This document shows positions 7,078-25,712 of a stretch of DNA of 25,929 nt, piece by piece. How positions within the stretch are numbered: the first letter of the stretch is position 1; each line of letters begins with the position of its first letter. The DNA comes from Silvanigrellaceae bacterium (GTDB lineage Bacteria; Bdellovibrionota_B; Oligoflexia; Silvanigrellales; Silvanigrellaceae): the NCBI GenBank assembly GCA_049423385.1, contig JBMSQQ010000050.1, positions 1-25,929 of the forward strand, in the 5' to 3' direction. The notes under the pieces were generated by a model. It did no database searches and was not told where the DNA came from. It worked only from the letters and a program-made list of their open reading frames with translations. Position numbers and translations under genes: made by a program.

Positions 7078-7686
7078 TCACGAAACACTTTGGATGGCCA
7101 GTCCGACCAATCCAGCAAAAAAAGCCAGATTTCCAATCAAGCTCAAATACGCAAGCAGAATGAAAATTCCATTTGCTTCTATCATTGCCAGGCAACTGAA
7201 AAGCACTCCCCATGCAGGCACCGAGTTGCTGAATGGAATAGGCAAGGGCAAAGCCAACAACAACGAAAGAAACACAACATGACTCGCGAGAGCCCGGGGA
7301 TGCGACAAGACTCGCCCCACGATTCCCAAATTTAGATGAGGAATCCTTGCAAGTCTTTCCAGCATCGTCTCTGCGTAACCAAGTATCTTTTGAAAGGTTT
7401 CAACCTTGATTTCACGCATGCGAACACGGTGCGGAAGTGCCTTGTGACCTTTGCCCGCGATGGTGAGAACGCCAAAAAAAGCCATCGCAAGCCCCAAAGG
7501 CGTACTCAATCCGGGCAACGGCACGGGTTGTAAAAAAGGAACACAAAACAGCACTCCGCTGAACGCAAACTCCATTGGTTCCAGCAGCACAAACAACTCA
7601 CCCACAGTATGATGCTCGCGTGCAGTGTCGGACTCCTTGGTCACTGCCGCGCGGATGGCGCGAATCCTCTGAAGGGTCAGGTTCAT
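7078..7686 (-). CDS. exoD: ExoD-family exopolysaccharide synthesis membrane protein
   Basis: PFLQPVPLPGLSTPLG and LLALPLPIPFSNSVPA signatures, with a hydrophobic C-terminus. Confidence 0.85.
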   Translation of the reverse strand: MNLTLQRIRAIRAAVTKESDTAREHHTVGELFVLLEPMEFAFSGVLFCVPFLQPVPLPGLSTPLGLAMAFFGVLTIAGKGHKALPHRVRMREIKVETFQKILGYAETMLERLARIPHLNLGIVGRVLSHPRALASHVVFLSLLLALPLPIPFSNSVPAWGVLFSCLAMIEANGIFILLAYLSLIGNLAFFAGLVGLAIQSVS

Positions 7687-7761
7687 TTTGCATCCTGCTC
7701 ACAAACGGCTACTATTCCGAAGCTCGAGTCTGACAGAATTTTACCGGAAAGGAAATCCTGG

Positions 7762-9210
7762 GTGATTTCAGCAAAAAAACATCGACGCGTTGGCCTGGAA
7801 CTCTCAATTTTCAAGTGGGTTGTGTGTCTGCAGTTGTTGGTCTTGCCCCGCCTGGCAAATGCCGATCGAGCCTTCGGAAAAATTGCAGACACAGTTGTTC
7901 CTACCCTCGGATACACAGTGGACGCAAAACAAAACCGACAACTCATTTTCATGAATAATCCAGAATTTCTTTTATTTGGACGTGATGAATGCGATCTTGC
8001 AGATGAGATGCCGCGTTGGCGAAGAATGACTTGCGCACGGAGCTTGTTCAAAATCGATACTTTAAACAAAGGTCGATACAGGGCTTGGTGGGAACATCGA
8101 AACATGATGCCCTTTGCGGTGCACTCGGGTGTTCTTGTTACAAACAACAGTCACGAAGAAGCGCATATCGTTGTCGAAAACGATGCCATCGAAACCAACA
8201 GCCTCAAGAATGGCGGCAACGAATTTGTGCAGATTTTCAACTCAAATGCGCACAATTCAGAGTTCGAACTTGCACCCGGAGAGAAAAGATTCCTGGGCAC
8301 CACAACCAACAAGACTATCAGATCCGGCAATTTTTTTGCGGGTGTTGTCGACTTTGAAATCAAATCCGGCAGCGTGACTTTCGAAGAAGTTGTCTTCAAG
8401 GATCAACCGGCAGGCAATCTTTCTCATATTGGTTATTCAAGCAGAACCATGTTCAAGGTTCATGAAAGCCTTGTTTACAAGGGAGTCTCGCAAGTTTCCG
8501 CGATGAGGCTCGATGGTGCTGAATTCGCGATCGATGACAACTCTCTCGAGGGTCCACTGCCCTTGGCATACAAACAGGCAGAGGTCGTGCCTCTGGCTCA
8601 ACTGGATTCAACGTGCCGACCCGACCGAGTTCCTGCCTGCTCAGGCGCTGCTTTGAAGATGAGACAAGATCCCGTGCGGGATACTGCCTGGGTCACCCAC
8701 ATTGCGCCCGATCCCGAGGATGCCAATCCCAAACGAAAACGCGCAATACTCTCGGACCTGGTGGAACTGGTTCTTCCCGGCAGCACATCCGGTTGTCTGT
8801 CCCTCTGGCCACAGTCAAATCCCGCATGCATGGTGATGTCGCACAATCATTTTTGGTACCTGCACGATTTCAAGAAGTGGCGGTTGCCAAATTGGGGAAA
8901 TTGGGGAGTCGTATATTCTCATCCCATCAAGATAAAAAACAACGGATTCAAAAACCGTTTCGTGAAGGTATACATCACGGCCGATGGAGCTTCGCCTTTG
9001 GCGTTTCGAGGAACGGGCATGGGAAATCAGTGGCAACAGATTTTTCTCGATCCTAAAGCCAGTTCAAACAACCCTGCGAGCGCGCTTGTCGCAAGGTCAC
9101 ATGTCCTTGCCCTTGGCGAAACTGAACTGAAAGTGGAATTCGTTTTGAGCGGGCCCGGCGCCGGAACCCTCGAGCACAGAGTGGAATTGATGGATTCTGA
9201 GGATGATTGA
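7762..9210 (+). CDS. Secreted hypothetical protein, possibly DUF3370-like
   Basis: Long ORF. GTG at 7762 follows AAAGGAAA and gives a signal-like N-terminus ending ..PRLANA|D; the track start at 7609 would overlap exoD. LIFMNNPE, WWEHRN and GNWGVVY recall the NSPE and GNYGVxY motifs of DUF3370-type proteins. Confidence 0.6.
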   Translation: MISAKKHRRVGLELSIFKWVVCLQLLVLPRLANADRAFGKIADTVVPTLGYTVDAKQNRQLIFMNNPEFLLFGRDECDLADEMPRWRRMTCARSLFKIDTLNKGRYRAWWEHRNMMPFAVHSGVLVTNNSHEEAHIVVENDAIETNSLKNGGNEFVQIFNSNAHNSEFELAPGEKRFLGTTTNKTIRSGNFFAGVVDFEIKSGSVTFEEVVFKDQPAGNLSHIGYSSRTMFKVHESLVYKGVSQVSAMRLDGAEFAIDDNSLEGPLPLAYKQAEVVPLAQLDSTCRPDRVPACSGAALKMRQDPVRDTAWVTHIAPDPEDANPKRKRAILSDLVELVLPGSTSGCLSLWPQSNPACMVMSHNHFWYLHDFKKWRLPNWGNWGVVYSHPIKIKNNGFKNRFVKVYITADGASPLAFRGTGMGNQWQQIFLDPKASSNNPASALVARSHVLALGETELKVEFVLSGPGAGTLEHRVELMDSEDD

Positions 9211-9346: not shown

Positions 9347-11599
9347 ATGAAACCAATTTGTTTGTATTTATCCGGAGTTTTGCCAGTCTTGTTTTTGAAT
9401 TCCTGCGCACCAGGGAAGGCTGGCGGCAGCGGAGGGATTGGGTGTTCGAAGACTTCGAGTGTCGTTAAAACTCCGCAAATTCGCACCATCGAAGAGATCA
9501 CCACCGAACCGTCCGCTGCGACCCTCCGTGAGCGATTCCTGAAATTTTTCGGTTCGGAAGATCCTCATTTCACGAGTTCAAGTGGTTCCATCGTGCAGAG
9601 TTCAACCGGGGGTTTGAAGACCACCGGTGGGTATCTCTACATCAAATCCCGTGCCAGCTCGGATCCCCTCGGCCCTGTTGTGCAAGACAAACTCAGCCGA
9701 TGCAGCGTCCTGGTGGAATTTCCGAAAAACACAGCGCAGGTCAATCGGCCCGGATCGGGCTCAAATCCTTTTCCAAACACCACTTCAGCAATCGAAGCAT
9801 ACCGCTTTCCCTCCGAATCGGATGAACTGAAAATCCGTGTCTATACCGCTGCCCATTGCCTCGATTTTTCGGTGAACGAAACCCTGACTTTGTCGATTTT
9901 CAATCTCGACAAACCAGGACTCCCTGAGCCATCGCTGGCCTACGTGAATCTGGATGTTGAAGCTGAAGAGCTGCTTGCCGTGAAGAATCTTCGAAAGGAA
10001 ATTGAGAACAAGATTCAAGCCGGAGTCGTCACGAACAGCGAAGGTACAAGCATTCTGAGCGCCTTTCGGCCTCCAGCTCGCAATCTCGAGAAAATCTTTG
10101 GAACGGACTCATCCACTCCCAGGGGGAAGTGCAACTTCAAACCCGCGACTGTGGATGACAACACGGAGCAATATTCGTGCGCGACGTATCATGATCTTGC
10201 CGTTTTGGATTTGACGATAAACGAAACACTGACCACGGAAAAAACATCCGTGCTCAAAAACATCCGCAGCAAATGGGTGCAAAATGCAAAGGCAGAAGAG
10301 AACAAGGGACTGTGGGTGGAATATGTGAAGCCGCCTTTCAACATGGGTCAACCCAACATGCTCCGCCTTTTCGTAGACAATGTACTTTCTTCCAGCGTCG
10401 ATTCAACCCTTCAATCTGACGCAGCCAAGGGAACGGGAACTTGCGTCGCTTTTCCGGAGTACAGCACTCTGCAATCGTGCACCAATCTTTCAGCTGACCC
10501 TCAAATTTGCCCGATGCAGTCTTCAAAATTGGCGCTGTTCCATCCCACAATCGCCAATTGCGTCGAGGTTCCGCTCGACAGCCCCGAAAACCTGCAATAC
10601 GTGCGGCATCTCTCACGCTACGAAATGCGAAACTTTTCCAGACACAACATGGTTGGAAACATTCGGGAACTGACGACAGGCTTGTCATCAAATCTTCTTA
10701 ACCTCCACCTGTGCAGCAACAGCACCGCCATCTGTTCACTCACGGGAGCCATCAATTCGGCTTTGGACAAGGTCGTTCCCGGACTCACACTCACCAAGGT
10801 CAACAGCGATTTTCAAGCTGACTATCAGACCGCAACCAAACGGGTGGATGCCGGCCTCAACATTTGGAATCCATTCTTCGCCGTTGCAAATAGCATCGAT
10901 ATCGATGCACAAAATCAGACATTCAACGGTGGCATGACATTTGATAAAAGTATCCTCAAGGAAATGATCAACCCTGTGGACTTTCTCAAGCTGCATTCCA
11001 ACTTCATTGTCGTGGATGAGGCTGTGACCCAGATTCCGGATGCGACAGACACGACAACTCATCGGGCTTTCATGATGATGCCCATGGCAAGTATCGTGGG
11101 ACTCGAAGAAATGCTATTCTCGGCGTCACCCTCCACCAAGCCGATCGCGATTGAAAACTGGAGCGATTCGACGGCTGGAAGCGGCTTTGGAAAATTCCTC
11201 AGACTGTTCGTGAAACAATCCACGCTCAATTCATTTTTCACATCGGGCCTCGGCGATTTTACCCCTCCTTCGCCTCCACCAGGGGTAAGCCTGCCGCCCA
11301 TGAGCACTATCTTTGTCGGAGCCAATGACACCGTTTTAAACCAACCATTGCCCACCAAAGTGACCCTCCAAAAAGGCGACAGCGGCTCGATTTTCACTCT
11401 CGACGGCATTCCAATGTTTGCATTGTCGACAGTGAACGGTGAGCCGACTTCGGGTGGTGCTGCCGTAAGTGCAATCCCTGTCGCTGGTGCAGACACGGAC
11501 GACACTCCCCCCGGAGGTAGTGTTGCCGACAATGGTGGAACCGATGGCCAGCCGGTTGCGAGCGTTGGTGGCAAGGGCGGCGGTGCTGTCTGCAAATAA
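9347..11599 (+). CDS. Large lipoprotein, putative trypsin-like (S1/PA clan) serine protease with large insertions
   Basis: Lipobox-like FLNSC. YTAAHC (His170), HDLAVL (Asp283) and KGDSGS (Ser679) occur in canonical order. Gly/Pro-rich termini. Confidence 0.7.
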   Translation: MKPICLYLSGVLPVLFLNSCAPGKAGGSGGIGCSKTSSVVKTPQIRTIEEITTEPSAATLRERFLKFFGSEDPHFTSSSGSIVQSSTGGLKTTGGYLYIKSRASSDPLGPVVQDKLSRCSVLVEFPKNTAQVNRPGSGSNPFPNTTSAIEAYRFPSESDELKIRVYTAAHCLDFSVNETLTLSIFNLDKPGLPEPSLAYVNLDVEAEELLAVKNLRKEIENKIQAGVVTNSEGTSILSAFRPPARNLEKIFGTDSSTPRGKCNFKPATVDDNTEQYSCATYHDLAVLDLTINETLTTEKTSVLKNIRSKWVQNAKAEENKGLWVEYVKPPFNMGQPNMLRLFVDNVLSSSVDSTLQSDAAKGTGTCVAFPEYSTLQSCTNLSADPQICPMQSSKLALFHPTIANCVEVPLDSPENLQYVRHLSRYEMRNFSRHNMVGNIRELTTGLSSNLLNLHLCSNSTAICSLTGAINSALDKVVPGLTLTKVNSDFQADYQTATKRVDAGLNIWNPFFAVANSIDIDAQNQTFNGGMTFDKSILKEMINPVDFLKLHSNFIVVDEAVTQIPDATDTTTHRAFMMMPMASIVGLEEMLFSASPSTKPIAIENWSDSTAGSGFGKFLRLFVKQSTLNSFFTSGLGDFTPPSPPPGVSLPPMSTIFVGANDTVLNQPLPTKVTLQKGDSGSIFTLDGIPMFALSTVNGEPTSGGAAVSAIPVAGADTDDTPPGGSVADNGGTDGQPVASVGGKGGGAVCK

Positions 11600-13465: not shown

Positions 13466-15166
13466 TCAGAGAGTCTGCAAAAACTGAACAAGACTCAGCA
13501 CATCTTCTCGCGAAAATCTCGACTGGCCATCTTTTGCGAAAATCCCTTCGTCATGACCTTGGTTGCCCATGCCCTTTCGGCGTGTGTCGTAAAATCCCCA
13601 CCGGTTTTTCGCCCAAGCCTTGGGAGCTTTTTCTCCAATCGGATATCCGTTGCAGGTGGAATCGAAATCGGTGGAAGTCGACTCTGCTTCACCCACATTC
13701 CATGCCACAGGCCTCTGGGACGATGGCATCAACAAGGCACACAACGACGGAACCGAATTGTTGTGCAAATATGGCCAGCGCGCCCAAATACCCACCAGAG
13801 GCGGCGGCACGTACCCTTTCTGAACCTTCACGACGATACCATGCTTCTTTGAAACATCGAGGCTGTTGAGCGGCTCTGCGAGAGCATTCATGCCCTCAGC
13901 CCGCAGCGCGTCGGTACCAACGTTCACCACAGGAGTATTGGCATGATAGGTGACGCTGATGGTCTTCAACAGTTCACGCTGGCTCATTGAGGCAGCATTC
14001 GAACTTTCGAAACCCTTGATGTACTGGCCATGACAAAACGAACAATTTTCGTTGAACAACTTCTGGCCGCGGCGAACCTTGTTCAAATCAAAATGAGACT
14101 CCGGAAAAAAATCGAGGAACTCCGGGGCCTGCGACGAAAAAACAGCCGCTGTGAGATCTCGAACGACCGACTCGTTGCTTTCCAACCAGCGTGTCAGTTG
14201 CCCGAGGTCTGTTCCCCGGCCGATTTCATTCCAGAGAATATTTGTAAAAATGGGATTACCGGCAACCACTGAACCATCGAGCAGCCACTTGTTTTTGTAT
14301 TTCACGTTCCACCAGACCGCAGGCTTGCTGTCTGCAGGTTGATGCTTCAGCAACGAATCACGCGGAAATGAACGTGACTGCGGAGTTTTGGATGCCTCAC
14401 CATCATTTTCGCGACGACTCAGGCTGAGCGCCACATGTGCCAGCGAGGTGTCCAGTCCACGCACGAGTGGCTTTCTGCCATCGATGTATTGCGCGTTTTC
14501 ACGCAAGCGCCGATACATTTCCATCTCTTTTTCGGTGGCACCCAATCCCTGCTTGAAAAAGACTGGCGGAACAATCGTCGTGGCGGTGCGGCCCAGCAGG
14601 AAAAATTCATTGGCTCTTGGAAAGCGATTGTTGAGCCCAATCACCTTGCGACCAAACAAGTTGCCGGCATGACATGTTGCACAGCTGAAGGTGATGGCTG
14701 GCCCCTCGGGAGCATCTATGAAACTGGTCCCCATTTTGAACCAGGGTTTCTTCCCCTCAGGCATTGGAACAAAATAGGCGCCTTCGCCCTGTGTTTCTGG
14801 ATAATCGACAAGACCAACCATTCTTTCCACGTCGGAGAAGGATTGGAAGTTGAGCGTCTTCTTGAATGCGTTCTGCAACAAGGTGAGCAACGGATTGGTT
14901 TGACTGCTGGGCTTGAAAAAACGCAGTGCAGCATCACGTGGCAGAGCCTCTCCCGTGATTTCAACCGGATAATCGAGGGCGTACTGTTTTCCCCTCAGCG
15001 CAGCTTCTGCCAGTTCAGAGTTGCTCAATTCCAACGGATTGTTTCGACCTTGAGGCGAAATCGCTTCGTCCTGGACCCAACTTGCCGCGAGTGCAAAGCT
15101 TGTCATGCCAGATGCGACACAGAATGAAATCGTGGACAATCTCTTCTTGAATCGAAAACGTCTCAT
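13466..15166 (-). CDS. Secreted di-heme cytochrome c, RoxA/MauG-like
   Basis: Signal peptide. Two CxxCH motifs: CATCH (about 14669-14683) and CSFCH (about 14030-14044). KPAVWWN, VGTDALR, GYVPPPLVGIWARWPYLHNNSVPSL and GMGNQGH motifs. Confidence 0.82.
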   Translation of the reverse strand: MRRFRFKKRLSTISFCVASGMTSFALAASWVQDEAISPQGRNNPLELSNSELAEAALRGKQYALDYPVEITGEALPRDAALRFFKPSSQTNPLLTLLQNAFKKTLNFQSFSDVERMVGLVDYPETQGEGAYFVPMPEGKKPWFKMGTSFIDAPEGPAITFSCATCHAGNLFGRKVIGLNNRFPRANEFFLLGRTATTIVPPVFFKQGLGATEKEMEMYRRLRENAQYIDGRKPLVRGLDTSLAHVALSLSRRENDGEASKTPQSRSFPRDSLLKHQPADSKPAVWWNVKYKNKWLLDGSVVAGNPIFTNILWNEIGRGTDLGQLTRWLESNESVVRDLTAAVFSSQAPEFLDFFPESHFDLNKVRRGQKLFNENCSFCHGQYIKGFESSNAASMSQRELLKTISVTYHANTPVVNVGTDALRAEGMNALAEPLNSLDVSKKHGIVVKVQKGYVPPPLVGIWARWPYLHNNSVPSLCALLMPSSQRPVAWNVGEAESTSTDFDSTCNGYPIGEKAPKAWAKNRWGFYDTRRKGMGNQGHDEGIFAKDGQSRFSREDVLSLVQFLQTL

Positions 15167-15263: not shown

Positions 15264-16022
15264 TTAGCGATGCCAATTCACATGCAAGTGATTGTCATGG
15301 CCAGATGCGCTTCCCACAAAGCCCGGGTATTTGCTCTGAACCGAGTAATCGTTGAACAACATACTCGTCGCACCGCCCATGTTCAATATCTCGCCGATCA
15401 CGGCAGACTGGGCACTGCGCAAATAACAGCCTTCCCAGATCGTGTAGCAGCTCACAGTCGGTGTGTTGCCCATGATGGCAATATCGACCTCGATACCATC
15501 ATAATGGCCTGCATGTCGGCCGGAGTTGCCTCCAGCAGCATTCGACAAATCTCCCACGTAGAGCTTGTATCCAGTCTTGTTGTAGACCCTGATGGCAAGT
15601 TCTTTGATGCGTGCAATCATCTTGGGTTGTCCATATCGCATGGATTCAACATCGAAGGTTTCATACCCATAGCCACTTGCAGGAAGCTTCACCAATCCGC
15701 CTGAGCCATTCGAAGGATTGAAGGGACCACTGTGAACTTCGCTGTTGCAAAATTTCTGATAGCAAGTGGTGCCACCCTTGTTGTCCAGGCATTTGCTGAG
15801 TGTTTCCATGGCGCAGAAATTTTCACTCGGTTTGAATCCGCAGCGGGAAAAACACGAAAGGCCACCGCGGGCGTCGGTACAGTCGGAAATATCCTTGACC
15901 GTGCATTTGGCCTCGCCGGTATCCACGGCCATGAAGCCTGCAGAATTTCGATTGCCTTGATTTGCAGTGCAGGCCACAACCGACGCAAATGAGACAAACA
16001 ACGTTGCCAACAAGCTTTTCAT
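15264..16022 (-). CDS. Lipoprotein with a Cys-rich tandem repeat and a C-terminal MepA-like (LAS-type Zn) murein endopeptidase domain
   Basis: ATG 16022 gives MKSLL...VVAC lipobox. RYGQP, VGDLSNAAGG, HAGHYDGIEVDI (H-x6-D) and HDNHLHV (HxH) match the MepA zinc-ligand pattern. Confidence 0.8.
   Translation of the reverse strand: MKSLLATLFVSFASVVACTANQGNRNSAGFMAVDTGEAKCTVKDISDCTDARGGLSCFSRCGFKPSENFCAMETLSKCLDNKGGTTCYQKFCNSEVHSGPFNPSNGSGGLVKLPASGYGYETFDVESMRYGQPKMIARIKELAIRVYNKTGYKLYVGDLSNAAGGNSGRHAGHYDGIEVDIAIMGNTPTVSCYTIWEGCYLRSAQSAVIGEILNMGGATSMLFNDYSVQSKYPGFVGSASGHDNHLHVNWHR
15747..15905 (-). repeat. Two protein-level Cys-rich repeats, C-x7-C-x4-GG-x2-C-x3/4-C
   Basis: CTVKDISDCTDARGGLSCFSRC and CAMETLSKCLDNKGGTTCYQKFC. 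Confidence 0.75.
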
Positions 16023-16203
16023 AAACCACCCACAATTCTTGAAAGCGAATGAACAGGACACCCGCATGGGCAAGACGAAGCAGAAGTCGTGCCAAGAATA
16101 ATGCCGAATTTCATGGGGCTTTTTGACTTTCAGGGCTGACCAAGGATTGGACAGTCGCAAATTCTTTACGGTATCATCCTGAAAGATCAGCCGGAGTTGC
16201 ATC

Positions 16204-17097
16204 TTGGTTCAAAAGCAGAACATTCCCATTGAACTCATCCCAACCTTCCTCCTGCTTGCGGAGGAACTCAATATTTCCAAATGCGCCAAGAGGCTTGGGC
16301 TTTCGCAGCCTGCATTGACCCGTCAGCTTCAGACACTCGAGGAAAGTTTCGGCACACAGTTGTTCATCCGACAAAGTCGAGGACTGGCCCTGACGCAGAC
16401 CGGTCGCTCTTTAAAGAAAGAGATCCTTCCGGGCTACGAAAACCTTGTGAATGCCCTGACCCGTGTTCAAAAAACCAATGCCGAACTCGACGGTGCACTC
16501 ACATTTGGATGCTTTTCGGAGATTGGTACCCACCTGATTGCCCCTGCGCTCTTCGAGTTCGCCAAGACTCACCCTCAAGTTCAACTCGACATCAGATATC
16601 TCTCCGAGGCTGAAATCATCGCTGCGGTCAGCAATGGGCAACTCCACTTGGGAACGGCGAGCCGAGCCCCCGACGCCGAGTCGGTGCGCTCCTACAAACT
16701 CGTCGAGGAGAAGGTTCAGATTGTAACTGCTCGTGGCAATCCTGATCTTGAAAAAAATCCGAAAGCCAGATTTGCCGGATATCGTGCCAACGATCGCCTG
16801 CTTCAAGCATTCCTCAAGACCCACTTCCCAGGCCGCTTCCGTGAAGGTCCGAATATCGCAGTTTCGGTCAACTCACATCAAGCCATGCTGGATGCCGTCA
16901 TCAAGCTTGAACTCTACGCCGCTCTTCCCGAGCACAGCATCACGGCTGCTCTTCGGGATGGAAAAATTCGCCTTGCGACCGCAAAGGAATGCAAAAACCA
17001 AGTCCACATCATCATGCCCGATTCCGAATTCCCAGACCGAAAAACTCTAGAGGTCGTCAAGTTCCTCCGGAAAAAATTCAAATCACTTGAGGGTTGA
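16204..17097 (+). CDS. LysR-family transcriptional regulator
   Basis: N-terminal HTH NISKCAKRLGLSQPALTRQLQTLEESFGTQLFIRQSRGLALTQTG, about 297 aa, with a substrate-binding domain. TTG start is uncertain. Confidence 0.95.
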   Translation: MVQKQNIPIELIPTFLLLAEELNISKCAKRLGLSQPALTRQLQTLEESFGTQLFIRQSRGLALTQTGRSLKKEILPGYENLVNALTRVQKTNAELDGALTFGCFSEIGTHLIAPALFEFAKTHPQVQLDIRYLSEAEIIAAVSNGQLHLGTASRAPDAESVRSYKLVEEKVQIVTARGNPDLEKNPKARFAGYRANDRLLQAFLKTHFPGRFREGPNIAVSVNSHQAMLDAVIKLELYAALPEHSITAALRDGKIRLATAKECKNQVHIIMPDSEFPDRKTLEVVKFLRKKFKSLEG

Positions 17098-17102
17098 GGT
17101 TT

Positions 17103-17645
17103 ATGTTCAAGGTGAAGTCTCTTTTGAACCTGGGGCCAAGTGCAGAAAAGGGACGCATCTGGAAGGGTGTGGAAAAGATATTTTTCGAATCTTCCTCGAA
17201 AAAAACTTTTTCATCACCCGAAGAAAGAGAGGTTTTCCGCTTCAAATATCTTGATTGGTACGCAAAGCATCATCCGGAATGCTTTTTCATTGCAATTGAA
17301 GACAACACTGACGCTCTAGGATACATCTGCGGAGTAGTCGACACTCGCACCCCTGAAGACCTCACGCTTTTGCATCCATGGTTTGCGCTCTTTGCCGATT
17401 GCTTCGAAAATTTCCCGTCACATTTGCATATCAACTGCGGCGAAACATCCCGGGGGCAAGGACTCGGAAGCACGCTCCTGAGCGTCTTTGAAAATCATAT
17501 GAAGTCCCAAAATGCGGCGGGTATTCATCTCGTCACATCACCAGGCGCCCGCAATGTTGGCTTTTACGACAAAAATGGCTATAAATTCACCAAAACAAGC
17601 GAATGGAAAGGGACGACGATGCTCTTGATGGGCAAATCCCTCTGA
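17103..17645 (+). CDS. GNAT-family N-acetyltransferase
   Basis: GYICG, FPSHLHIN, acetyl-CoA motif SRGQGLGSTLL, GIHL and NVGFYDKNGY. ATG 17103 after GAGGT. Confidence 0.88.
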   Translation: MFKVKSLLNLGPSAEKGRIWKGVEKIFFESSSKKTFSSPEEREVFRFKYLDWYAKHHPECFFIAIEDNTDALGYICGVVDTRTPEDLTLLHPWFALFADCFENFPSHLHINCGETSRGQGLGSTLLSVFENHMKSQNAAGIHLVTSPGARNVGFYDKNGYKFTKTSEWKGTTMLLMGKSL

Positions 17646-17676
17646 ATTCAGCGAACTTGAAGAACGGGAACAAAAA

Positions 17677-18813
17677 ATGAACAAGCAGCTTATTTTTACC
17701 TCCTTGTCGGTTGCGTTCTGGTCATTGGCCTGTGTGACTCCAGCCCATTCCGAATCCTCATTTTTTTCGGGTCGGTACAAAGTCAACTGCACCAACAGTC
17801 CCGAGGGCTGTGCCTGCACCACTTCTCCGCAATCATCCGAACCCGCCGCGATGGTGCTGCATGCTCAACCCGTGTCAGGCACCTCAAACCGCGATGCCAC
17901 TCTCGACAAACCAGCGCCCGTGGAGCTGAGCGTCAACGGCAAAACCTGTTTCTATCCATCACAGAAATTGCGGCCGATTTATTGGGACAGCGAACTCTGT
18001 CCAAATCCCGACGCAGCTGCAAGCATCCCTTTTCGCTCCATGCCCGAATTGCTGGAATCTGGCAGCAGCGAAAATGAAAAACTCTCTTTGGGTGCGCTAT
18101 TTCCAACTTTCTACAACATCGCCGATGAATCGTTTCATCCAGGCCCCAAGATTGTTCCGATTTATGAAGCTGTCAGCGGAAAGCTGATTGCCCGCGTGAG
18201 CAAGACATTTCATGAAGACCTCGACATGGAAGGCACAGGACGCCTCGTGGATGGGCGTGTTCTGAACGTTGCAAATTACGTCAACGGAATCTGGGACTAC
18301 AAAATCCTCCCATCCGACGCATTTGGAATTGGTATTCTGGGACACAACCTGCATCCCTACCGTTCAGTTGCAGTCGACTTTGCACATCTTTGTAAACAAG
18401 GCGGCTATTCCTTCTGCAATCAACCCATCGCAGAAATTAAAAAACGCCTGATTGGTGCTCTGCTCTATGTACCCCGCTTGCGTGGCATTCCACTGGGGAA
18501 TGGCAAAACCCACGATGGTTATGTTTGTGCACAGGATGTTGGCGGAGCCATTGAATTTGACCGGGTCGACATTTTTGTCGGGCCCATCGGCGGCGGAAAT
18601 CCCTACTTGAAGGATTGCAGGCAGAACAATCCCTTGATCGATGCGGGACTCCACGGGCTGGTTCCCACCGATTGGCGAACCTACGAAGCGAATGGCTTCG
18701 ATGATGCCGGAAAACCCAAATTCAGACGCACCAAAGAATTTGAATACCGCATTTATGGCGCGAAAAAAGCCCTTGAAACCTATATTGTCAAAGATTCATT
18801 CTGCAAACCCTGA
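17677..18813 (+). CDS. Secreted 3D-domain protein (MltA-like lytic transglycosylase fold)
   Basis: Signal peptide ending AHS. TFY, MEGTGRL, PYRSVAVD and AQDVGGAIEFDRVDIFVG carry the three conserved Asp residues of the 3D domain. Confidence 0.82.
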   Translation: MNKQLIFTSLSVAFWSLACVTPAHSESSFFSGRYKVNCTNSPEGCACTTSPQSSEPAAMVLHAQPVSGTSNRDATLDKPAPVELSVNGKTCFYPSQKLRPIYWDSELCPNPDAAASIPFRSMPELLESGSSENEKLSLGALFPTFYNIADESFHPGPKIVPIYEAVSGKLIARVSKTFHEDLDMEGTGRLVDGRVLNVANYVNGIWDYKILPSDAFGIGILGHNLHPYRSVAVDFAHLCKQGGYSFCNQPIAEIKKRLIGALLYVPRLRGIPLGNGKTHDGYVCAQDVGGAIEFDRVDIFVGPIGGGNPYLKDCRQNNPLIDAGLHGLVPTDWRTYEANGFDDAGKPKFRRTKEFEYRIYGAKKALETYIVKDSFCKP

Positions 18814-18834
18814 GACCAGCGAAAGACCTCAATC

Positions 18835-20502
18835 ATGACAACAAGAGCAAAACACCGCGCGCTTGTCTGCGGAACTTACATCACAGCGTTTTCAATAGCT
18901 GGAACAGGATTTGCAAAGCCACAAAGCTGTCTCAGCGAAAAAGAGCTTTCAGCGCTTCTGAAAGCGGCGGTGACAAACACGGACTTTGATCAGGTGGTCG
19001 ACCTGGGTCCCAATTTTACTGAAGACGGCTGTCCGGCAAGCGAACCAGCCTGCAAGCACGGACGCACACCTGTTGGTGCAGAGCGTTTTCCGCAGATCGA
19101 TCTCGCGGTCATTGCCTTTCAAAAAGGATGCGCAAACCCTGTTGTTGGCAGCAATGTTTTCTTCTCGCGCGATTTCCCAAAAGGCATCAGCGCGGAATTC
19201 GACAAAACCACGGGAGCCGTGGCAAACGTTCGCTTGCAGCGTTGGACGCAAGAAAGATTCGACGGTGGTCAGGTTTCCAGGAAAGCTCCCTATTTTGAGC
19301 AAACTCCTCATGCATGGAAAGCACCATTCCCACCGGAAGACCTCATCAACAGCGAAGCTTCGAGTTCTTCCGCAAATTTCATGTCGCCCTATCCGGCAAG
19401 CATCTTCAAGATTCTGGTGTTGACAAAAGTGCTGACCTACCTTGAGGAAAATGGCCCACTCGAAAAACAACTCGATCAAAAATTCACCTACGACTTTGGC
19501 ACTCCCGACACAAAAGACGACACAACCTTGAGTCTGCGTGAATATCTCGATGCCATGATCCAATGGAGCGGAAACAAAGCCACCGCTGCAATGATTCAAT
19601 TTCTGCATAAAAACGGACAGATCATTGAGTCAAAAATGCTGGACGAAGCTGGTTTCCCCTCAGCCATGCCAACTCTCAACACCTTGAACAGCCTGTATGC
19701 CGAACTCGGACTGTCTTCCCTTCAAATGAACCGAACGCGGATGAAGGATGGTCTTTGGGGAAATCGGGACACGATGTACCTGAAGAACAGTTCAAGCATC
19801 AGTCATATTTCAATGCCATCATGGGATGTGGCGCGACTGCTGTGGCTGATGCGTTCCAATTCGAGAACTGCTGCAGCTGAACTTCCTTCCTGGAAAATAT
19901 CCGAAGGACGGCCCGTCAACCCATTCAAAATTTCTGATGCCGTGAAAAAGAAGTTCTGGGACAACATGGACAACCAGCTTTTCCATGAAGTCTTGAGCAA
20001 CACCCTCCACTGCAACCAGGCGACTGGCGGCCCCTTTGGCATTCCTGCACGACTGCCAGGGAAATGGATTTCGCAGAACAAAATCAAACTTCCGGTTGGC
20101 ACATTTCCATTCACTTTTGCTCCCGATGAATTGAAAGGCGATTACAAGTTCAGCGAAAAAATTGCGGAATGCCAGAAGACTGCCGAGGTCTCATTTGCTT
20201 CAAAAACCGGCCTCACGTCGGTTTCGGGTAGCCAAGCAGGACTGGTCAAAGGTTTGTCGGAGCGCGGGTTCCGGCGAGAGTATATTGTAGTTCTGAATTC
20301 GAGCCTTGGCAGCCGATTCACTGATCCGGAAAGACTGGATGGCGAGCGCGTGATTCCGTGTTTCGACAAAACCCTTTGCTACACGAAACGAATCAACCAG
20401 CTCGGCGCAAATATCGACAATTCACTGAAGGGATGGTTGGAATCCAATGAGCGAAGCAGCACAAACACACGTCTTGCAAAGCGCAAAACAAAAGTCCAAT
20501 GA
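18835..20502 (+). CDS. Secreted serine hydrolase, class A beta-lactamase/PBP fold
   Basis: Signal peptide. YPASIFK (SxxK, Ser189), MIQWSGN (SxN, Ser245) and SKTG (Lys457). Confidence 0.8.
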   Translation: MTTRAKHRALVCGTYITAFSIAGTGFAKPQSCLSEKELSALLKAAVTNTDFDQVVDLGPNFTEDGCPASEPACKHGRTPVGAERFPQIDLAVIAFQKGCANPVVGSNVFFSRDFPKGISAEFDKTTGAVANVRLQRWTQERFDGGQVSRKAPYFEQTPHAWKAPFPPEDLINSEASSSSANFMSPYPASIFKILVLTKVLTYLEENGPLEKQLDQKFTYDFGTPDTKDDTTLSLREYLDAMIQWSGNKATAAMIQFLHKNGQIIESKMLDEAGFPSAMPTLNTLNSLYAELGLSSLQMNRTRMKDGLWGNRDTMYLKNSSSISHISMPSWDVARLLWLMRSNSRTAAAELPSWKISEGRPVNPFKISDAVKKKFWDNMDNQLFHEVLSNTLHCNQATGGPFGIPARLPGKWISQNKIKLPVGTFPFTFAPDELKGDYKFSEKIAECQKTAEVSFASKTGLTSVSGSQAGLVKGLSERGFRREYIVVLNSSLGSRFTDPERLDGERVIPCFDKTLCYTKRINQLGANIDNSLKGWLESNERSSTNTRLAKRKTKVQ

Positions 20503-22120
20503 ATTTCTCGCCATCGCCCCGCAGTTCAAGCTGGGCGATCTTCCCACGGAATCACAACACCCAAAGACAATGCAGCTTTCGGAATGGGCCCAGAACAACC
20601 TCCCGCAAGCTCTCAAAGTCATGCGGGAAGTGGATTGTGATGCACTCAGGCTGATGGTCGGCAAAGCCTCTGAAGTCCTCAAACTCGCAACTGCAATGCG
20701 CGAAACACTCGACCGCGGCGGCAGAATCTATTTTGTCGGTTGTGGCGCGACTGGAAGATTGTCCTTGAGCATTGAAGTTCTGTGGCGGGAAGCGGTGGGC
20801 AACAGCCACCCCTGGTGCGACAGGGTTCGCTCATTGATGGCAGGCGGCGACGTTGCGTTGGTGCGTTCGATTGAAAACTTCGAAGACCATCCTGAATTTG
20901 GCGCACGTATGCTCGATGAAGCTGGCTTTCAGGCTGGTGACCTGCTTGTTGCCTCGACAGAGGGCGGCGAAACTCCCTATGTGATTGGCGCGGCTTTGCG
21001 CGCTCCCGAAATTTCAGCGCAAAACCATTGGTTTCTTTTTTGTAATCCGGCTGAACTTCTCACACAAAAACTGGAACGCTGTCGGCAGGCCATCCTTCAC
21101 CCCAGGCTCAACAAAATGAATCTCACTGTGGGTCCCATGGCAATTTCGGGCAGCACCCGCATGCAGGCCAGCACAGTGCTGATGCTCGCAGGTGGAACTG
21201 CGCTGTTTGAATGCCTCAAGGAGCATCCAAGCTATGACTCAATTGAGGAGTCGATGGAGACGCTTTTGGAGCACTACGGCTCTATCGATCTTGCTCCGTT
21301 GTCGCAATTCATCATCGCTGAAAGCGAAGCCTACAAGCGCGGAGAAACACTGGTCTACGAGACAACTGATTATGGAATCACGGTGATCACCGACACCACG
21401 GAACGTTCACCAACCTTCAGTCTGGCCGCGTTCGAAAACCGCAACGACAGCAATGCCAGTGCAAGTCTTTGCTACCTTTGCATACCTTCGGTGGACTCAG
21501 CAAATGCGGCTTGGATTCATCTGCTCAAACGTGATCCCCGACCCCTCATTGGTTGGAAAAACCACGAAGAAATTGCCGGTCCTGGCAGGCTTGTCGGCTA
21601 TGATTTTTCTTCGTCGCTCCCTGCATGGCGCAAATCAAAACGACCCGGCGTCACACAAAAATCGTTCAAGGTTTTGCGCACCGGGCAGGGTATCGAGTTT
21701 TCGCTGGAAGGCTTGAATGCCTGCTTTGACCAAAAACAATTGACCCTGCTCAATGAACATTTGCTGCTCAAGATGATTCTGAATATTCATTCGACTCTCG
21801 TGATGGGTCGGTTGGGTCGCTACCAGGGCAACGTCATGACGTGTGTTCGCCCCAGCAACTTCAAGCTCATCGACAGGACCATTCGCTACGTACAGTTGCT
21901 CCTCAATCGTGAAGGAATCAGCAACTATTCCTATGCCGACATCTGTTTGCAATGCTTTGTGGAACTCGAAACCGCTGATGTGAATGAACCCATCGTTTGG
22001 AAAATATTTGAATCGCTGAAGCAGAAAAACATCATCTCGCAGGACACGGCCGGTTCAACTTCCATTCCACACGTCAAAACGAGTTACGAAACCCGTTCCT
22101 TTTCGGCATCAAGAACGTGA
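20447..22120 (+). CDS. Elongated MurQ/glucokinase-regulator-like SIS-domain protein
   Basis: LPTESQHP, GGRIYFVGCGATGRLS, MAGGDVAL, SIENFED, GGETPYVIG, GPMAISGSTRMQA, and C-terminal KMILNIHSTLVMGRLGRYQGNVM...SNFKLIDR. These are all MurQ-like blocks, but the protein is 557 aa. Confidence 0.8.
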   Translation: MSEAAQTHVLQSAKQKSNEFLAIAPQFKLGDLPTESQHPKTMQLSEWAQNNLPQALKVMREVDCDALRLMVGKASEVLKLATAMRETLDRGGRIYFVGCGATGRLSLSIEVLWREAVGNSHPWCDRVRSLMAGGDVALVRSIENFEDHPEFGARMLDEAGFQAGDLLVASTEGGETPYVIGAALRAPEISAQNHWFLFCNPAELLTQKLERCRQAILHPRLNKMNLTVGPMAISGSTRMQASTVLMLAGGTALFECLKEHPSYDSIEESMETLLEHYGSIDLAPLSQFIIAESEAYKRGETLVYETTDYGITVITDTTERSPTFSLAAFENRNDSNASASLCYLCIPSVDSANAAWIHLLKRDPRPLIGWKNHEEIAGPGRLVGYDFSSSLPAWRKSKRPGVTQKSFKVLRTGQGIEFSLEGLNACFDQKQLTLLNEHLLLKMILNIHSTLVMGRLGRYQGNVMTCVRPSNFKLIDRTIRYVQLLLNREGISNYSYADICLQCFVELETADVNEPIVWKIFESLKQKNIISQDTAGSTSIPHVKTSYETRSFSASRT

Positions 22121-24928
22121 GACTAGCTCCAGTGCAGAAAAGATGGAGTCAAACGCGACTCCATTGAGCGACAACGACACTTCGCAGGTTTTGCTCGAGC
22201 AATAGCCTTGTCTTGCGCCTTCGTCGCTCCAGACAATTTTCCCAACAGCATTTTCCGAAAGCTCGGGATGCCAAAGTCCCCGATCTCCTGCCATGCCACA
22301 ACACGCATTCTGAAGCGGAAATACCGGTTTTTCGCAAATCTTTTTTGCCAACGTCTCAAACCTGCCCATTCCTCCGGACTTCACGACAGAGCATACCGGA
22401 AAGAACCTTGTTTCGGATTTGAGCGGCGATATTGGCAAGTCTTCTGCAAGACGAAGTGCCAGGTCAACAGGATCCAGAATTTGCAGTCTGGAGAGCTTTT
22501 CTTGTGATGACTGTGAAACTTCCTTTGAATCTTCAAACATCGACAACGCACAAGGACTGTTGTCCAGCACAACAGGAATTTTTCCTCCGTCAGTTATTTC
22601 GAAGAGTCTATCGATGAGCGCAGACAACTTTGCACCCGACTGGCTGGGAAAGCCTTTGGAGCTCCAAGGCTGACCACAACACATGCCGCGCTCGTCGAGC
22701 ACATGAAGCTCAACTCCTGCCCGTCGACAACACTCAAGCAATGGGTCGCTCAAATTCTTGTCGCAGGGCCCATTCAAGGTACGCGACAAGCAGCTTCTGA
22801 AAAGCACCAGCCTTCGCGCCGTCAGGGCTTGCTCTCGCGTGAACTCTTTGAACGGAACAGGAACCTCGAAGGAAACGAAAGAATTTTGCACTTTGCCATT
22901 TTTTGAGAGCTTCGCTTTCCATTGGGGCGTTCCCAGGACATTGTTGAGTTGTCGCGAGGCAGCTTCCAAAGCAGAGGTGCCGACAATCTTTCTGGCCAGA
23001 TCTGCTGCACCCAAAGATGCGGAAATCAAATTCTCCACCAGCGGCATCGCTTCTGAGGCAAATTCCGCGACCCGGCGCGAGGAAGACGAGGAGTTTTTCT
23101 TGCGGTGCTGCTTGACCCAATTGCCCGTGTTGATACCCACGGGGCAAGCTTTTGCGCACAAACCATCGGCTGCACATGTGGCTTGAAACGCGTAATCAAG
23201 CGCTGCATCATCAACAACGGCAGCCGCTTTGTGTTCCGACAACTCTCGTTGCAGTACGATTCGGCCACGCGGAGAAAGCGTGAGTCCTTGGCTTGGACAC
23301 ACAGGCTCGCAAAAGCCACACTCGATGCAGGAGTCGACAAGTTCGTCGACAAGCGGACTCTGTTTGAGATTTTCGAGATGAACCCTGGGATTGGCATTGA
23401 TGAGCACACCCGGGTTGAAAATATTTTCAGGATCAAAAACATCCTTCAATTCACGCATCAATCCGTAGGCCTCGCCACCCCATTCCTTTTCAACAAAGGG
23501 TGCCATGTTGCGTCCGGTGCCATGTTCAGCCTTGAGGGCTCCTTCAAAGCGAATTGCAACGCATTCAACCATTTCATCAATAAATCTTTCGTACCTGCGC
23601 ACCTCCGCATCGAGCGCAAAATCCTGGGACAACACAAAGTGGAGATTTCCGTCGCGCGCATGTCCATAAATCACGGCATCGTGGTAGCGGTGTTTCTCCA
23701 GCAACCTGCGCAGCTCCAGTGTTCCCGATGCAAGCTTTGAAAGGGGAAAGGCAACATCCTCGATGATCACTGAGGTTCCGCGTGGTCGTCTTGCACCCAC
23801 CGCGGGAAAAATCCCTTTCCGCAATTCCCAGAGATTGTTTTGCTCATGTGTATCGGTCAGAAAGCCAGTTCTGTGTGAAACTTGCTTCCAGCGTGCAATA
23901 TCCTCGGCCCGCTCCAGAATTTCTTTCAGCTGCAAGCTGTCTTCTTGTTGTGCCTGAAGCAAAAGACATGCCCCCTGCCTGCTCATGTCTTGCAGGAAAC
24001 CTGGGATCCCCGGCTGTCCGCGGATGGCTTCGATCGAAGCGAAATCGAGAAGTTCAATGGCACTGAATCCCATATTGCGCAGAGCAGGCGTGAGTTCGCA
24101 CGCATCCTCCATGCGCCCGAAAGAAAGCAACGCACTGGCACGATGTGGACGCAATGGAACAGTTCGCAGTGTCATTTCCGCCATGAACCCAAGTGTGCCT
24201 TCAGAGCCGACCATCACATGCGAAAGAATCTCTGCACCAGTGCTGAAATCCAGAAAGGCCTGCAGGCCATAGCCTGTTGTATTTTTTGTCGATGCCTTGC
24301 GGCGAATCAAATTCACGACTGCAGCGGAATCGCGGACCTTGTCGCGCAGCTCCATGAGCCGACGGTAAATCTGCGGTTCCCGATTTCTGAAAATCTCTTC
24401 GCAATCGCTTTCACGCGTGTCGAGAATGGTCCCCGTTGAAAGAACAAGCTTCATGCCTTCTATCGTCCGGTAGGAATTCTCTTCGGTTCCGCAGCACATG
24501 CCACTTGCATTGTTGGCCACGATTCCACCGATGCAGGCCGCTTGAATCGACGCGGGATCGGGCCCAATCCGCCGTTCGAACTTCGTCAAAGCCGCATTCG
24601 CAACAGCACCGCGAACTGCGGGCCCACAGATTATATTTTGACCTGCCCCTGTGATTTGAAACTTGTCCCAACCTCGCGAGAGAAGCACGAGCATTCCGCG
24701 TGTCACTGCCTGTCCCGACAAGCTGGTGCCGCCGGTTCTAAAGGTCAAACCTGTGCGTTCTGTTCGTGCGTGCGAAATCAATTGCAAAATATCACCGAGA
24801 GAACCAGGTCGTGCCACACTCTGCGGAACCATCCTGTAGACACTTGCATCGTGGGCGTGCACAAGTCTGTCGGCCCAATCCTGCGAGACGAAATCCAAAC
24901 CCATTGCTGTTCCTTTATTGCAGTCCAC
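22109..24928 (-). CDS. dld: FAD- and Fe-S-binding oxidoreductase, Dld-II-type D-lactate dehydrogenase
   Basis: HDASVYR, GGTSLSGQA, IGPDPAS, NNASGMCCG, KNTTGYGL, GSEGTLGF, GHARDGNLHF, LKAEHGTGRNMAPF. Ferredoxin motifs CIECGFCEPVCP and CAADGLCAKACP, plus two CCG domains. Alternative start at 24904. Confidence 0.88.
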   Translation of the reverse strand: MDCNKGTAMGLDFVSQDWADRLVHAHDASVYRMVPQSVARPGSLGDILQLISHARTERTGLTFRTGGTSLSGQAVTRGMLVLLSRGWDKFQITGAGQNIICGPAVRGAVANAALTKFERRIGPDPASIQAACIGGIVANNASGMCCGTEENSYRTIEGMKLVLSTGTILDTRESDCEEIFRNREPQIYRRLMELRDKVRDSAAVVNLIRRKASTKNTTGYGLQAFLDFSTGAEILSHVMVGSEGTLGFMAEMTLRTVPLRPHRASALLSFGRMEDACELTPALRNMGFSAIELLDFASIEAIRGQPGIPGFLQDMSRQGACLLLQAQQEDSLQLKEILERAEDIARWKQVSHRTGFLTDTHEQNNLWELRKGIFPAVGARRPRGTSVIIEDVAFPLSKLASGTLELRRLLEKHRYHDAVIYGHARDGNLHFVLSQDFALDAEVRRYERFIDEMVECVAIRFEGALKAEHGTGRNMAPFVEKEWGGEAYGLMRELKDVFDPENIFNPGVLINANPRVHLENLKQSPLVDELVDSCIECGFCEPVCPSQGLTLSPRGRIVLQRELSEHKAAAVVDDAALDYAFQATCAADGLCAKACPVGINTGNWVKQHRKKNSSSSSRRVAEFASEAMPLVENLISASLGAADLARKIVGTSALEAASRQLNNVLGTPQWKAKLSKNGKVQNSFVSFEVPVPFKEFTREQALTARRLVLFRSCLSRTLNGPCDKNLSDPLLECCRRAGVELHVLDERGMCCGQPWSSKGFPSQSGAKLSALIDRLFEITDGGKIPVVLDNSPCALSMFEDSKEVSQSSQEKLSRLQILDPVDLALRLAEDLPISPLKSETRFFPVCSVVKSGGMGRFETLAKKICEKPVFPLQNACCGMAGDRGLWHPELSENAVGKIVWSDEGARQGYCSSKTCEVSLSLNGVAFDSIFSALELVSRS

Positions 24929-25091
24929 AAATCTTGAATCGACTTTGCCGGCACAGCAACCCCGAGCCGAGGAACATTTGATCTCGAAACGCGAAGCGGC
25001 AGGGGGGAACTTGACTCGTACTCAAATTTTATGTTACTAAAAAATTTAAATACACAAACTTTTGTGTATCACACCCCAACTGGAGGTTTCC

Positions 25092-25712
25092 ATGAACGCA
25101 ACCGTTAGAGTCCTTGCATCAGTGATAGCAACGCTTTCCGCGGCAAACGCGTTCGCGGATGTCCGTCCAGTTCCGCCGGGTCACAATCCGGGTCATCCCG
25201 GACACGGCCCAGGCCGTCCTTATCCCGGCCCGGGTCCCGGCTACCCCGATCCCAACCCAGGCTACCCGTCTCCCTATCCAGGAAACCCATACCCACGTGA
25301 TCCGCGTGGATATCCAAATCCACCCGCATTTGAATCGTTCGAATGCCGTGACATGCAAAACGGGTATGATTTCTTCACAATCACTCCTGCAGCCTACTCG
25401 CGCGGTGGTTACGTGGTTGACATCAACGCTCAAAACATCACCGCAAGCGGACTCGAAGCCTACGTGCTCAGCCGGTCCCACGATTCCATCCAGTTCCGCT
25501 TTTCAAGTCAATACGGAAACTCACACATCAACGTTGGCTATTTGAATCATCCCTATGGCCCAACAGCAGTGCTGTCTCTGGGTCGTGGCTACTATCAGGA
25601 ATTCAAGTGCCTCCGGCGATCGATTCCGAATCGTCCTTCCCCAGTTCCGCCCCGCCCCTATCCACCAAGCCCTTCCTATCCTCAAGCGCCATACCCCATT
25701 CCGCACCGCTGA
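25092..25712 (+). CDS. Secreted proline-rich hypothetical protein
   Basis: ATG 25092 after GGAGG. Signal peptide ending AFA|D. PGH/PYP-rich N- and C-terminal arms flank a small domain bounded by two Cys (FEC...FKC). Confidence 0.8.
   Translation: MNATVRVLASVIATLSAANAFADVRPVPPGHNPGHPGHGPGRPYPGPGPGYPDPNPGYPSPYPGNPYPRDPRGYPNPPAFESFECRDMQNGYDFFTITPAAYSRGGYVVDINAQNITASGLEAYVLSRSHDSIQFRFSSQYGNSHINVGYLNHPYGPTAVLSLGRGYYQEFKCLRRSIPNRPSPVPPRPYPPSPSYPQAPYPIPHR

Follow-up and report, generated by a model that had tools for sequence, protein, structure and literature searches.

The question raised by this locus is what seven contiguous genes with relatives in cell-wall metabolism do together in a Silvanigrellaceae (Oligoflexia) genome, GCA_049423385.1, whose completeness is 90.6%. 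The genes occupy positions 15,264 to 24,928 of a 25,929-nucleotide stretch of contig JBMSQQ010000050.1, which was analysed as a whole and is called here the window. A first-pass annotation had described them as a regulated module for digesting cell wall. All seven open reading frames (ORFs) were present at the positions and on the strands first described, with their catalytic motifs intact, and family matches bore out the families named for them. Our analysis indicates that the locus is probably a cluster for degrading and salvaging peptidoglycan, specific to one genus in a Silvanigrellaceae lineage. In what follows, G000 is the source genome, other G labels are other genomes and L labels are the loci compared.

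[quoted passage not shown] It had been annotated as MurQ-like, and the homology with MurQ held, with the correction that the 557-aa product consists of two MurQ repeats in a single chain, which is the architecture of GKRP. PF22645 matched above its cut-off, and the canonical MurQ models remained under theirs (PRK05441, 139 of 168 bits; TIGR00274, 96.6 of 302). When each repeat was compared by hhalign with an alignment of five canonical MurQ sequences, both gave a match (98.9% and 92.4%). The structure model, with a predicted local distance difference test score (pLDDT) of 92.8, had GKRP as its best whole-chain match in Foldseek; GKRP 4bb9 aligned with it over 463 residues, with a Z score of 36.1 and a root-mean-square deviation of 3.1, and the similarity was lower for MurQ (Z 25) and GlmS (Z 22.7). 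In profile comparisons the sequence of the fused protein was closer to that of MurQ (E 8e-34), the value for GKRP being E 2.5e-16. With eukaryotic GKRP it has in common the GCGxxGRL and GGD motifs, an insertion after NP and the phosphate-loop glycine, and the collinear GKRP profile match reaches the glutamate of the second repeat.

In repeat 1 the GxGxxGRL loop and E146 are retained and the other catalytic glutamate is gone; repeat 2 provides the missing one, E319, within DTTERSPTF. Both glutamates are invariant in the 106 sequences aligned (106/106), and so are T102, T171, G173, T176 and K442. E146 and E319 align with the catalytic glutamate pair of MurQ (E83 and E114 in E. coli numbering), and the other five residues match the phosphate ligands of GKRP and GlmS. 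Architecture and residue conservation suggest a single active site within the chain, to which repeat 1 would contribute E146 and repeat 2 E319, like the site that the MurQ dimer forms across two chains. The phosphate loop reads T-E-G-G-E-T, with two invariant acids, as compared to A-A-S-G-R-T in MurQ.

The family is large, with 655 representatives at 50% clustering and E values up to 1e-30. Genome matches, at least 593, were found in Bacteroidales, Verrucomicrobiota, Bdellovibrionota, Myxococcales, Alphaproteobacteria and Acidobacteria, the closest of them (69-72% identity) belonging to Oligoflexia or Silvanigrellaceae. Its context outside the genus was analysed in 76 loci, one per cluster, by scanning the first and second neighbours of the fused gene; 50 of these loci, hand-picked to thin near-duplicates, together with eight relatives gave 58 carrier genomes. 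In none of the 58 was a canonical murQ detected above cut-off. A sister genus that lacks the fused form contained canonical murQ in four of five genomes. From these comparisons, many bacteria seem to have the fused form in place of ordinary MurQ, a mutual exclusion that may be confined to the subfamily compared here. As to unusual members, the genome of locus L139 (G081) carries two fused copies, and G028 encodes a divergent 675-aa relative (L042:1233-3260; 32-36% identical) that keeps the TEGGET loop; it was considered as a form nearer to GKRP and discarded, being no closer to it. No extra domain was detected at E 1e-10 in the 885-aa ORF of L130, and protein P0236 gave nothing beyond a match to S1/P1 nuclease under the cut-off.

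The D-lactate that such an etherase would release has a candidate sink next door. The FAD and Fe-S 2-hydroxyacid dehydrogenase (22109..24928, -; FAD_binding_4 + FAD-oxidase_C + Fer4) probably starts near 24904, is about 940 aa long and is present as one full-length copy in the source genome. Its PDB matches were glycolate oxidase, mitochondrial D-lactate dehydrogenase and LctD, no NCBIfam model matched it above cut-off, and its plasmid homologues are 39-42% identical, one of them being named lactate dehydrogenase. The Fe-S type named for it at the outset was borne out, and considering the architecture, the neighbours and known enzymes of this kind, it is most likely a D-lactate dehydrogenase. 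In G017, which belongs to another genus, the Fe-S dehydrogenase gene comes directly after the fused murQ and is read in its direction. Four of the 76 outside loci (L081, L086, L113 and L148) encode a short FAD-dependent 2-hydroxyacid dehydrogenase at most two genes from the fused murQ, and those of L086, L113 and L148 are about 24% identical to the window enzyme. Since these enzymes are unrelated and the four loci occupy three separate positions in the tree, a dehydrogenase appears to have been recruited repeatedly beside the fused etherase.

The other product, N-acetylglucosamine 6-phosphate (GlcNAc-6-P), would ordinarily be expected to meet NagA, of which no copy above cut-off was detected in the 13 genomes of the genus; among the 58 carriers NagA was found in 25. 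When neighbours from the outside loci were used as queries, an adjacent PIG-L deacetylase and SIS gene pair was found in the source genome (G000:C4 29104-30999; L242:7105-9000), PIG-L occupying 29104-29910 and SIS 29938-30999 of C4. Homologues of this pair adjoin the fused murQ in three alphaproteobacterial-type loci. The pair is kept in three of the five relatives tested, and its SIS protein has NagB-II as best model (110 of 430 bits). In the outside loci, PIG-L with SIS or NagB-like genes occurs near the fused murQ in 4 of 76 (L080, L095, L107 and L108). NagA is missing from all four of these PIG-L-linked carriers and AnmK is present in three (G049, G056 and G060), and for this reason we infer that the PIG-L enzyme acts on GlcNAc-6-P in place of NagA.

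The gene preceding the etherase encodes a secreted class-A-like serine hydrolase with a penicillin-binding-protein (PBP) fold (18835..20502, +; Beta-lactamase2). S189-x-x-K192, S245-x-N247 and K457-x-G459 are invariant in 30 sequences and T458 nearly so. Its Atlas neighbours are Beta-lactamase2 clusters; the single sequence gave no match in the PDB, and the best PDB profile match was DacB1 (E 0.013). In the alignment there is no conserved glutamate after QMNRT, the position of the omega-loop Glu166 of class A beta-lactamases having been matched by eye to a known motif. On these sequence features, the protein is probably a DD-peptidase or muropeptide hydrolase and not a beta-lactamase. Among distant relatives, ldcA was near the hydrolase gene in 24 of 53 metagenome loci, within 400 bp downstream in 21; counted by group, the linkage was 12 of 29 at 80% identity and 6 of 15 at 60%. 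Further neighbours in some loci were TonB receptors, an oligopeptide ABC system, D-Ala-D-Ala dipeptidase and S13 carboxypeptidases, and a canonical murQ stood beside one distant relative. In L198-L234 we observed conserved hydrolase-ldcA pairs accompanied by TonB receptor, Gate-domain, AstE/AspA-like or S13 peptidase genes, apparently an unnamed muropeptide-use cluster of other bacteria.

Upstream lie a GNAT of the OgpAT / O-GlcNAcase pseudo-acetyltransferase type (17094..17645, +; GNAT family match) and a secreted 3D-domain protein (17677..18813, +; PF06725). The best PDB matches of the GNAT were 3zj0 and 4bmh; its His112 aligns with OgpAT His135, the proposed base, and the acetyl-CoA loop is kept. 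The acceptor is possibly an amino sugar, and our guess is that deacetylated wall sugars are what it acetylates. The GNAT gene adjoins the 3D gene in another genus (G013) and directly follows ampG in another family (G029). In the 3D protein D234, D287 and D298 are invariant in 45 homologues and a signal peptide was seen by eye. Its profile found no sequence match in the PDB. With its structure model (pLDDT 90.9), the top 11 Foldseek matches were MltA/LtgG (E 2e-5 to 1e-4; template modelling score, TM, 0.23-0.28), so modelling points to a putative MltA-like lytic transglycosylase.

At the upstream edge, a MepA-like (M74) Zn endopeptidase (15264..16022, -; Peptidase_M74), a lipoprotein whose N-terminal region is rich in Cys, diverges from a LysR-family regulator (16204..17097, +; PF00126 + PF03466). 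The MepA gene most likely starts at the ATG at 16022 and not at 16202, considering a lipobox recognised by eye and the G010 orthologue, which starts there; this leaves 181 bp between MepA and LysR. PF03411 scored 46.9 bits (cut-off 25), and the MepA equivalog model stayed under its cut-off (46 of 272). The alignment with E. coli MepA 1tzp (E 4.6e-5) spans the HxxHxxxxxxD motif, and the C-terminal HxxHxH is HDNHLH, with the zinc ligands retained. In 10 of 12 congeners MepA likewise points away from the run, the contig ending in the other two. In eight of the 12 a vWA lipoprotein gene lies between MepA and the run. This vWA-like lipoprotein (L028:15118-15966) has no Pfam match; the source genome holds its orthologue at G000:C94 8384-9187, and three copies elsewhere.

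Could the seven genes be a single LysR-controlled, muropeptide-induced regulon for foraging on the walls of prey or detritus? The layout is suggestive, with MepA and LysR divergent, three exported hydrolases and tight spacing: LysR and GNAT share 4 bp, gaps of 31 and 21 bp separate GNAT from 3D and 3D from the hydrolase, and the hydrolase overlaps the MurQ-like gene by 56 bp. The seven-gene order is also alike in most congeners, and a sigma-70-like promoter was predicted upstream of LysR (16148-16177), although the numbers of predicted promoters (3 as compared to 5.1 in shuffled sequence) and terminators (17 as compared to 13.8) were those expected by chance. On the other side, the dehydrogenase is encoded on the opposite strand, convergent with the MurQ-like gene and overlapping it by 12 bp; the vWA gene parts MepA from the run in most congeners, and no linkage of MepA to genes of the locus was found outside the genus. 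As for LysR, it is adjacent in 8 of 12 congeners, the contig end making G008 uninformative, and in G002, G005 and G011, three of the 11 informative congeners, it is missing from the locus and its orthologue was not found in the genome; two metagenome contigs likewise lack it. All NCBIfam matches of LysR were under cut-off (PenR model, 48 of 625 bits). LysR is dispensable and, on sequence, not AmpR, and the AmpR-like control suggested earlier is not supported. One aquatic metatranscriptome contained 5% of the sequence words, and three contigs (≥99%) covered GNAT with its LysR junction as well as part of the hydrolase, which speaks neither for co-transcription nor for level. Overall, we consider a single regulon unlikely.

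Within the genus, all 12 congeners possess the fused murQ and the genes for the GNAT, the 3D protein, the serine hydrolase and the dehydrogenase, in the same order where contigs allow. Variation tells more: the slot after the fused murQ differs among the 12, holding AmpG in two, DedA in five and nothing in four, and being cut off in one. The two AmpG genes (G003 and G010, above cut-off) are 98% identical, so they represent one event. The DedA/VTT protein in this slot, for example at L030:8250-8930, has a weak UptA match, and we assume that it may recycle undecaprenyl phosphate. Outside the genus, beside the dehydrogenase and PIG-L loci, the fused murQ had SSF transporters as neighbours in four of the 76 loci, GH3 in two, nagA in one (L112, above cut-off) and an AmpG-like gene in one. 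In G013, of the nearest other genus, GNAT and 3D form a pair on a contig that carries neither the fused murQ nor the dehydrogenase, and a weak MepA match lies about 76 kb from the fused murQ. Taken together, a role in peptidoglycan salvage is supported by context outside the genus for four members, namely fused MurQ, dehydrogenase, GNAT and serine hydrolase. The fused murQ and the dehydrogenase, plus GNAT-3D, make up the tightest functional core, and LysR and MepA are looser, genus-level additions. Of the regulated wall-digestion module first proposed, the breakdown and salvage theme stands on the outside context of four genes, and the one seven-gene regulated unit does not.

Several observations weigh against a salvage cluster. 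Gene order shared across the genus carries little weight, since flanking genes of no related function show the same conservation (RoxA-like cytochrome and FAD oxidoreductase; ExoD, DUF2721 and PLD in G002), and genus-wide synteny was rejected as proof of a module. The conservation of gene neighbourhoods that had been suggested as a check holds throughout the genus and breaks down in G013, where the genes lie dispersed on four contigs and the serine hydrolase went undetected. About 60 of the 76 outside loci are, among the genes scanned, without any of the cell-wall or amino-sugar neighbour kinds counted. Near the closest outside relatives of the hydrolase (L182-L197) ldcA is missing, and the fold resemblance of the 3D protein is weak (TM 0.28). 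Finally, AnmK was found in none of 25 family genomes and in 9 of the 50 outside carriers, BadF/MurK in none of six genomes (the source and five relatives), and the phosphotransferase system (PTS) component EIIC was not found in the source genome. With no AnmK, BadF/MurK or PTS found, none of these accounts for the etherase substrate.

Part of this evidence would also fit a chance assembly, in which individual envelope or housekeeping genes have stayed together in one genus only because rearrangement is slow, and in which the fused SIS protein acts on some other sugar phosphate or regulates as GKRP does. Synteny of the whole window in the genus, the scattering in G013, the mainly housekeeping neighbours elsewhere and the missing MurNAc kinase all point that way. 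The invariant catalytic pair, the mutual exclusion with canonical murQ and the repeated, independent appearance of dehydrogenase, nagA, PIG-L, SSF and ampG neighbours are hard to reconcile with it, and make it a very improbable account.

The missing kinase invites another explanation, for which the rest of the genome is informative. The first annotation had noted neither transporter nor kinase in the window, which was confirmed; AmpG is encoded elsewhere in the genome, and inside the run in the two congeners mentioned. The genome search suggested at that time found ampG, above cut-off, and a NagZ-like gene (200 of 207 bits), and found neither anmK nor a canonical murQ; NamZ, one ROK kinase (contig C102) and weak AmgK-like (contig C6) and MurU-like genes were also present. 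AmgK-like genes occur in 47 of the 58 carriers, none above cut-off. At L243:2022-4496 (G000:C10), one 824-aa protein combines an LdcA-like carboxypeptidase with an Mpl-like murein peptide ligase. On a kinase-free route, the fused etherase would split free MurNAc into N-acetylglucosamine (GlcNAc) and D-lactate, after which PIG-L would deacetylate GlcNAc, the ROK kinase phosphorylate glucosamine and the SIS deaminase finish. Thermococcus Tk-Dac deacetylates free GlcNAc. The failure to find AnmK, BadF/MurK, PTS and NagA, the presence of NamZ, which frees MurNAc, and of a ROK kinase, and the two invariant acids of the T-E-G-G-E-T loop in place of the MurQ A-A-S-G-R-T would all suit such a route. 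It is nevertheless distinctly unlikely, considering that the residues matching the GKRP/GlmS phosphate ligands are invariant and that three of the four PIG-L-linked carriers possess AnmK, which makes the 6-phosphate.

For the peptidoglycan degradation and salvage cluster, we favour the following sequence of steps. Outside the cytoplasm, judging from fold and intact motifs, the 3D MltA-like enzyme would cut glycan strands, and the PBP-fold hydrolase, probably with MepA, would trim or cut peptides. Fragments would be imported via AmpG, and NagZ, NamZ and LdcA-Mpl, whose genes are present, would free sugars and peptides. Some kinase would supply MurNAc-6-P, which the single-chain MurQ would split into GlcNAc-6-P and D-lactate. 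The convergent FAD/Fe-S dehydrogenase would turn D-lactate into pyruvate, and the PIG-L deacetylase and NagB-II-like deaminase would probably convert GlcNAc-6-P to fructose-6-P, replacing NagA and NagB. Both foraging on prey or detritus and recycling of the own wall may fit the data. We put forward only tentatively the wider proposal of a distinct MurNAc pathway, with a GKRP-type etherase for MurQ, PIG-L for NagA, a repeatedly recruited D-lactate dehydrogenase and a kinase from a family so far without a tie to MurNAc, or no kinase, in which the GKRP architecture arose in bacteria eaten by amoebae.

Elsewhere in the window, a RoxA-like / di-heme cytochrome c protein (13466-15166, -) lies just downstream of MepA; it is syntenic in the genus and its gene almost abuts MepA in G001 and G006. 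Three large or Pro-rich proteins without Pfam match (9347-11599, 7609-9210 and 25062-25712) are kept in congeners, and the first two look exported. At 205-1770 (-), an RNA pseudouridine synthase is fused to a SAM-dependent rRNA methyltransferase domain.

The seven-gene arrangement is a feature of one genus, and the novelty lies in its parts: the fused etherase, the recruited D-lactate sink, the candidate NagA substitute and the missing kinase. The PMC open-access and bioRxiv literature searched contained no description of a bacterial two-repeat MurQ, of this cluster, of PIG-L as NagA substitute or of such a D-lactate sink. Carriers of the fused gene (Bdellovibrionota, Verrucomicrobiota, Bacteroidales and Myxococcota), among the Verrucomicrobiota a record titled Akkermansia muciniphila, score as murQ-less under curated cut-offs. 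Because the fused gene falls under these cut-offs, muramic-acid catabolism is missed in them, and the locus supplies candidate enzymes for the gap: a fused etherase, a D-lactate sink and a NagA substitute. It also raises the question of a missing enzyme, a kinase for MurNAc or anhydro-MurNAc, in those 41 of 50 carriers where AnmK was not found.

With respect to the known pathway AmpG-NagZ-LdcA-Mpl-AnmK-MurQ-NagA, AmpG, NagZ-like and LdcA-Mpl are present here, whereas AnmK and NagA were not found; in contrast to canonical recycling, murQ is clustered with a dehydrogenase and exported hydrolases. Multidomain Fe-S D-lactate dehydrogenases are represented by Shewanella Dld-II and Pseudomonas Fe-S D-iLDH. 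The enzyme described here has FAD_binding_4, FAD-oxidase_C, 4Fe-4S and the C-terminal region in common with them, but adjoins an etherase instead of lactate-uptake genes. With OgpAT and the Streptomyces sviceus GNAT 4BMH, our GNAT shares the proposed catalytic His and the acetyl-CoA loop; OgpAT, too, has no established acceptor (PMC3814719). Unlike OgpAT, it has no GH84 partner, its neighbours being 3D or ampG. Salvage of MurNAc through an etherase, independently of PTS, is common to Tannerella murTKQ, where MurT is a sodium symporter (PMC5790795); the SSF transporters beside the fused murQ in four Opitutales-type loci can be likened to it. Tannerella uses a canonical MurQ and a BadF-type kinase (PMC5790795), neither of which was found in this genome.

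Compared to MurQ (E. coli, H. influenzae 4LZJ and Yersinia 4S12), both repeats are homologous and the catalytic Glu positions are kept, the difference being a 557-aa single chain here and a dimer of chains of about 300 aa there. In eukaryotes, homologues of GKRP with two repeats have etherase activity (10.64898/2026.05.08.723886), and the available portions of two reports describe the fusion for eukaryotes only (10.64898/2026.05.08.723886; 10.64898/2026.05.05.723016), the GKRP tree of the second covering just amoebae and Holozoa (10.64898/2026.05.05.723016). The occurrence of a two-repeat etherase in bacteria is relevant to where the architecture of the human glucokinase regulator arose. With the eukaryotic GKRP etherases of Naegleria and lancelet, and with human and Xenopus GKRP (4BB9 and 3W0L), it has in common the SIS-SIS-lid arrangement over the whole chain, whereas the protein described here is bacterial and 16-19% identical to them.

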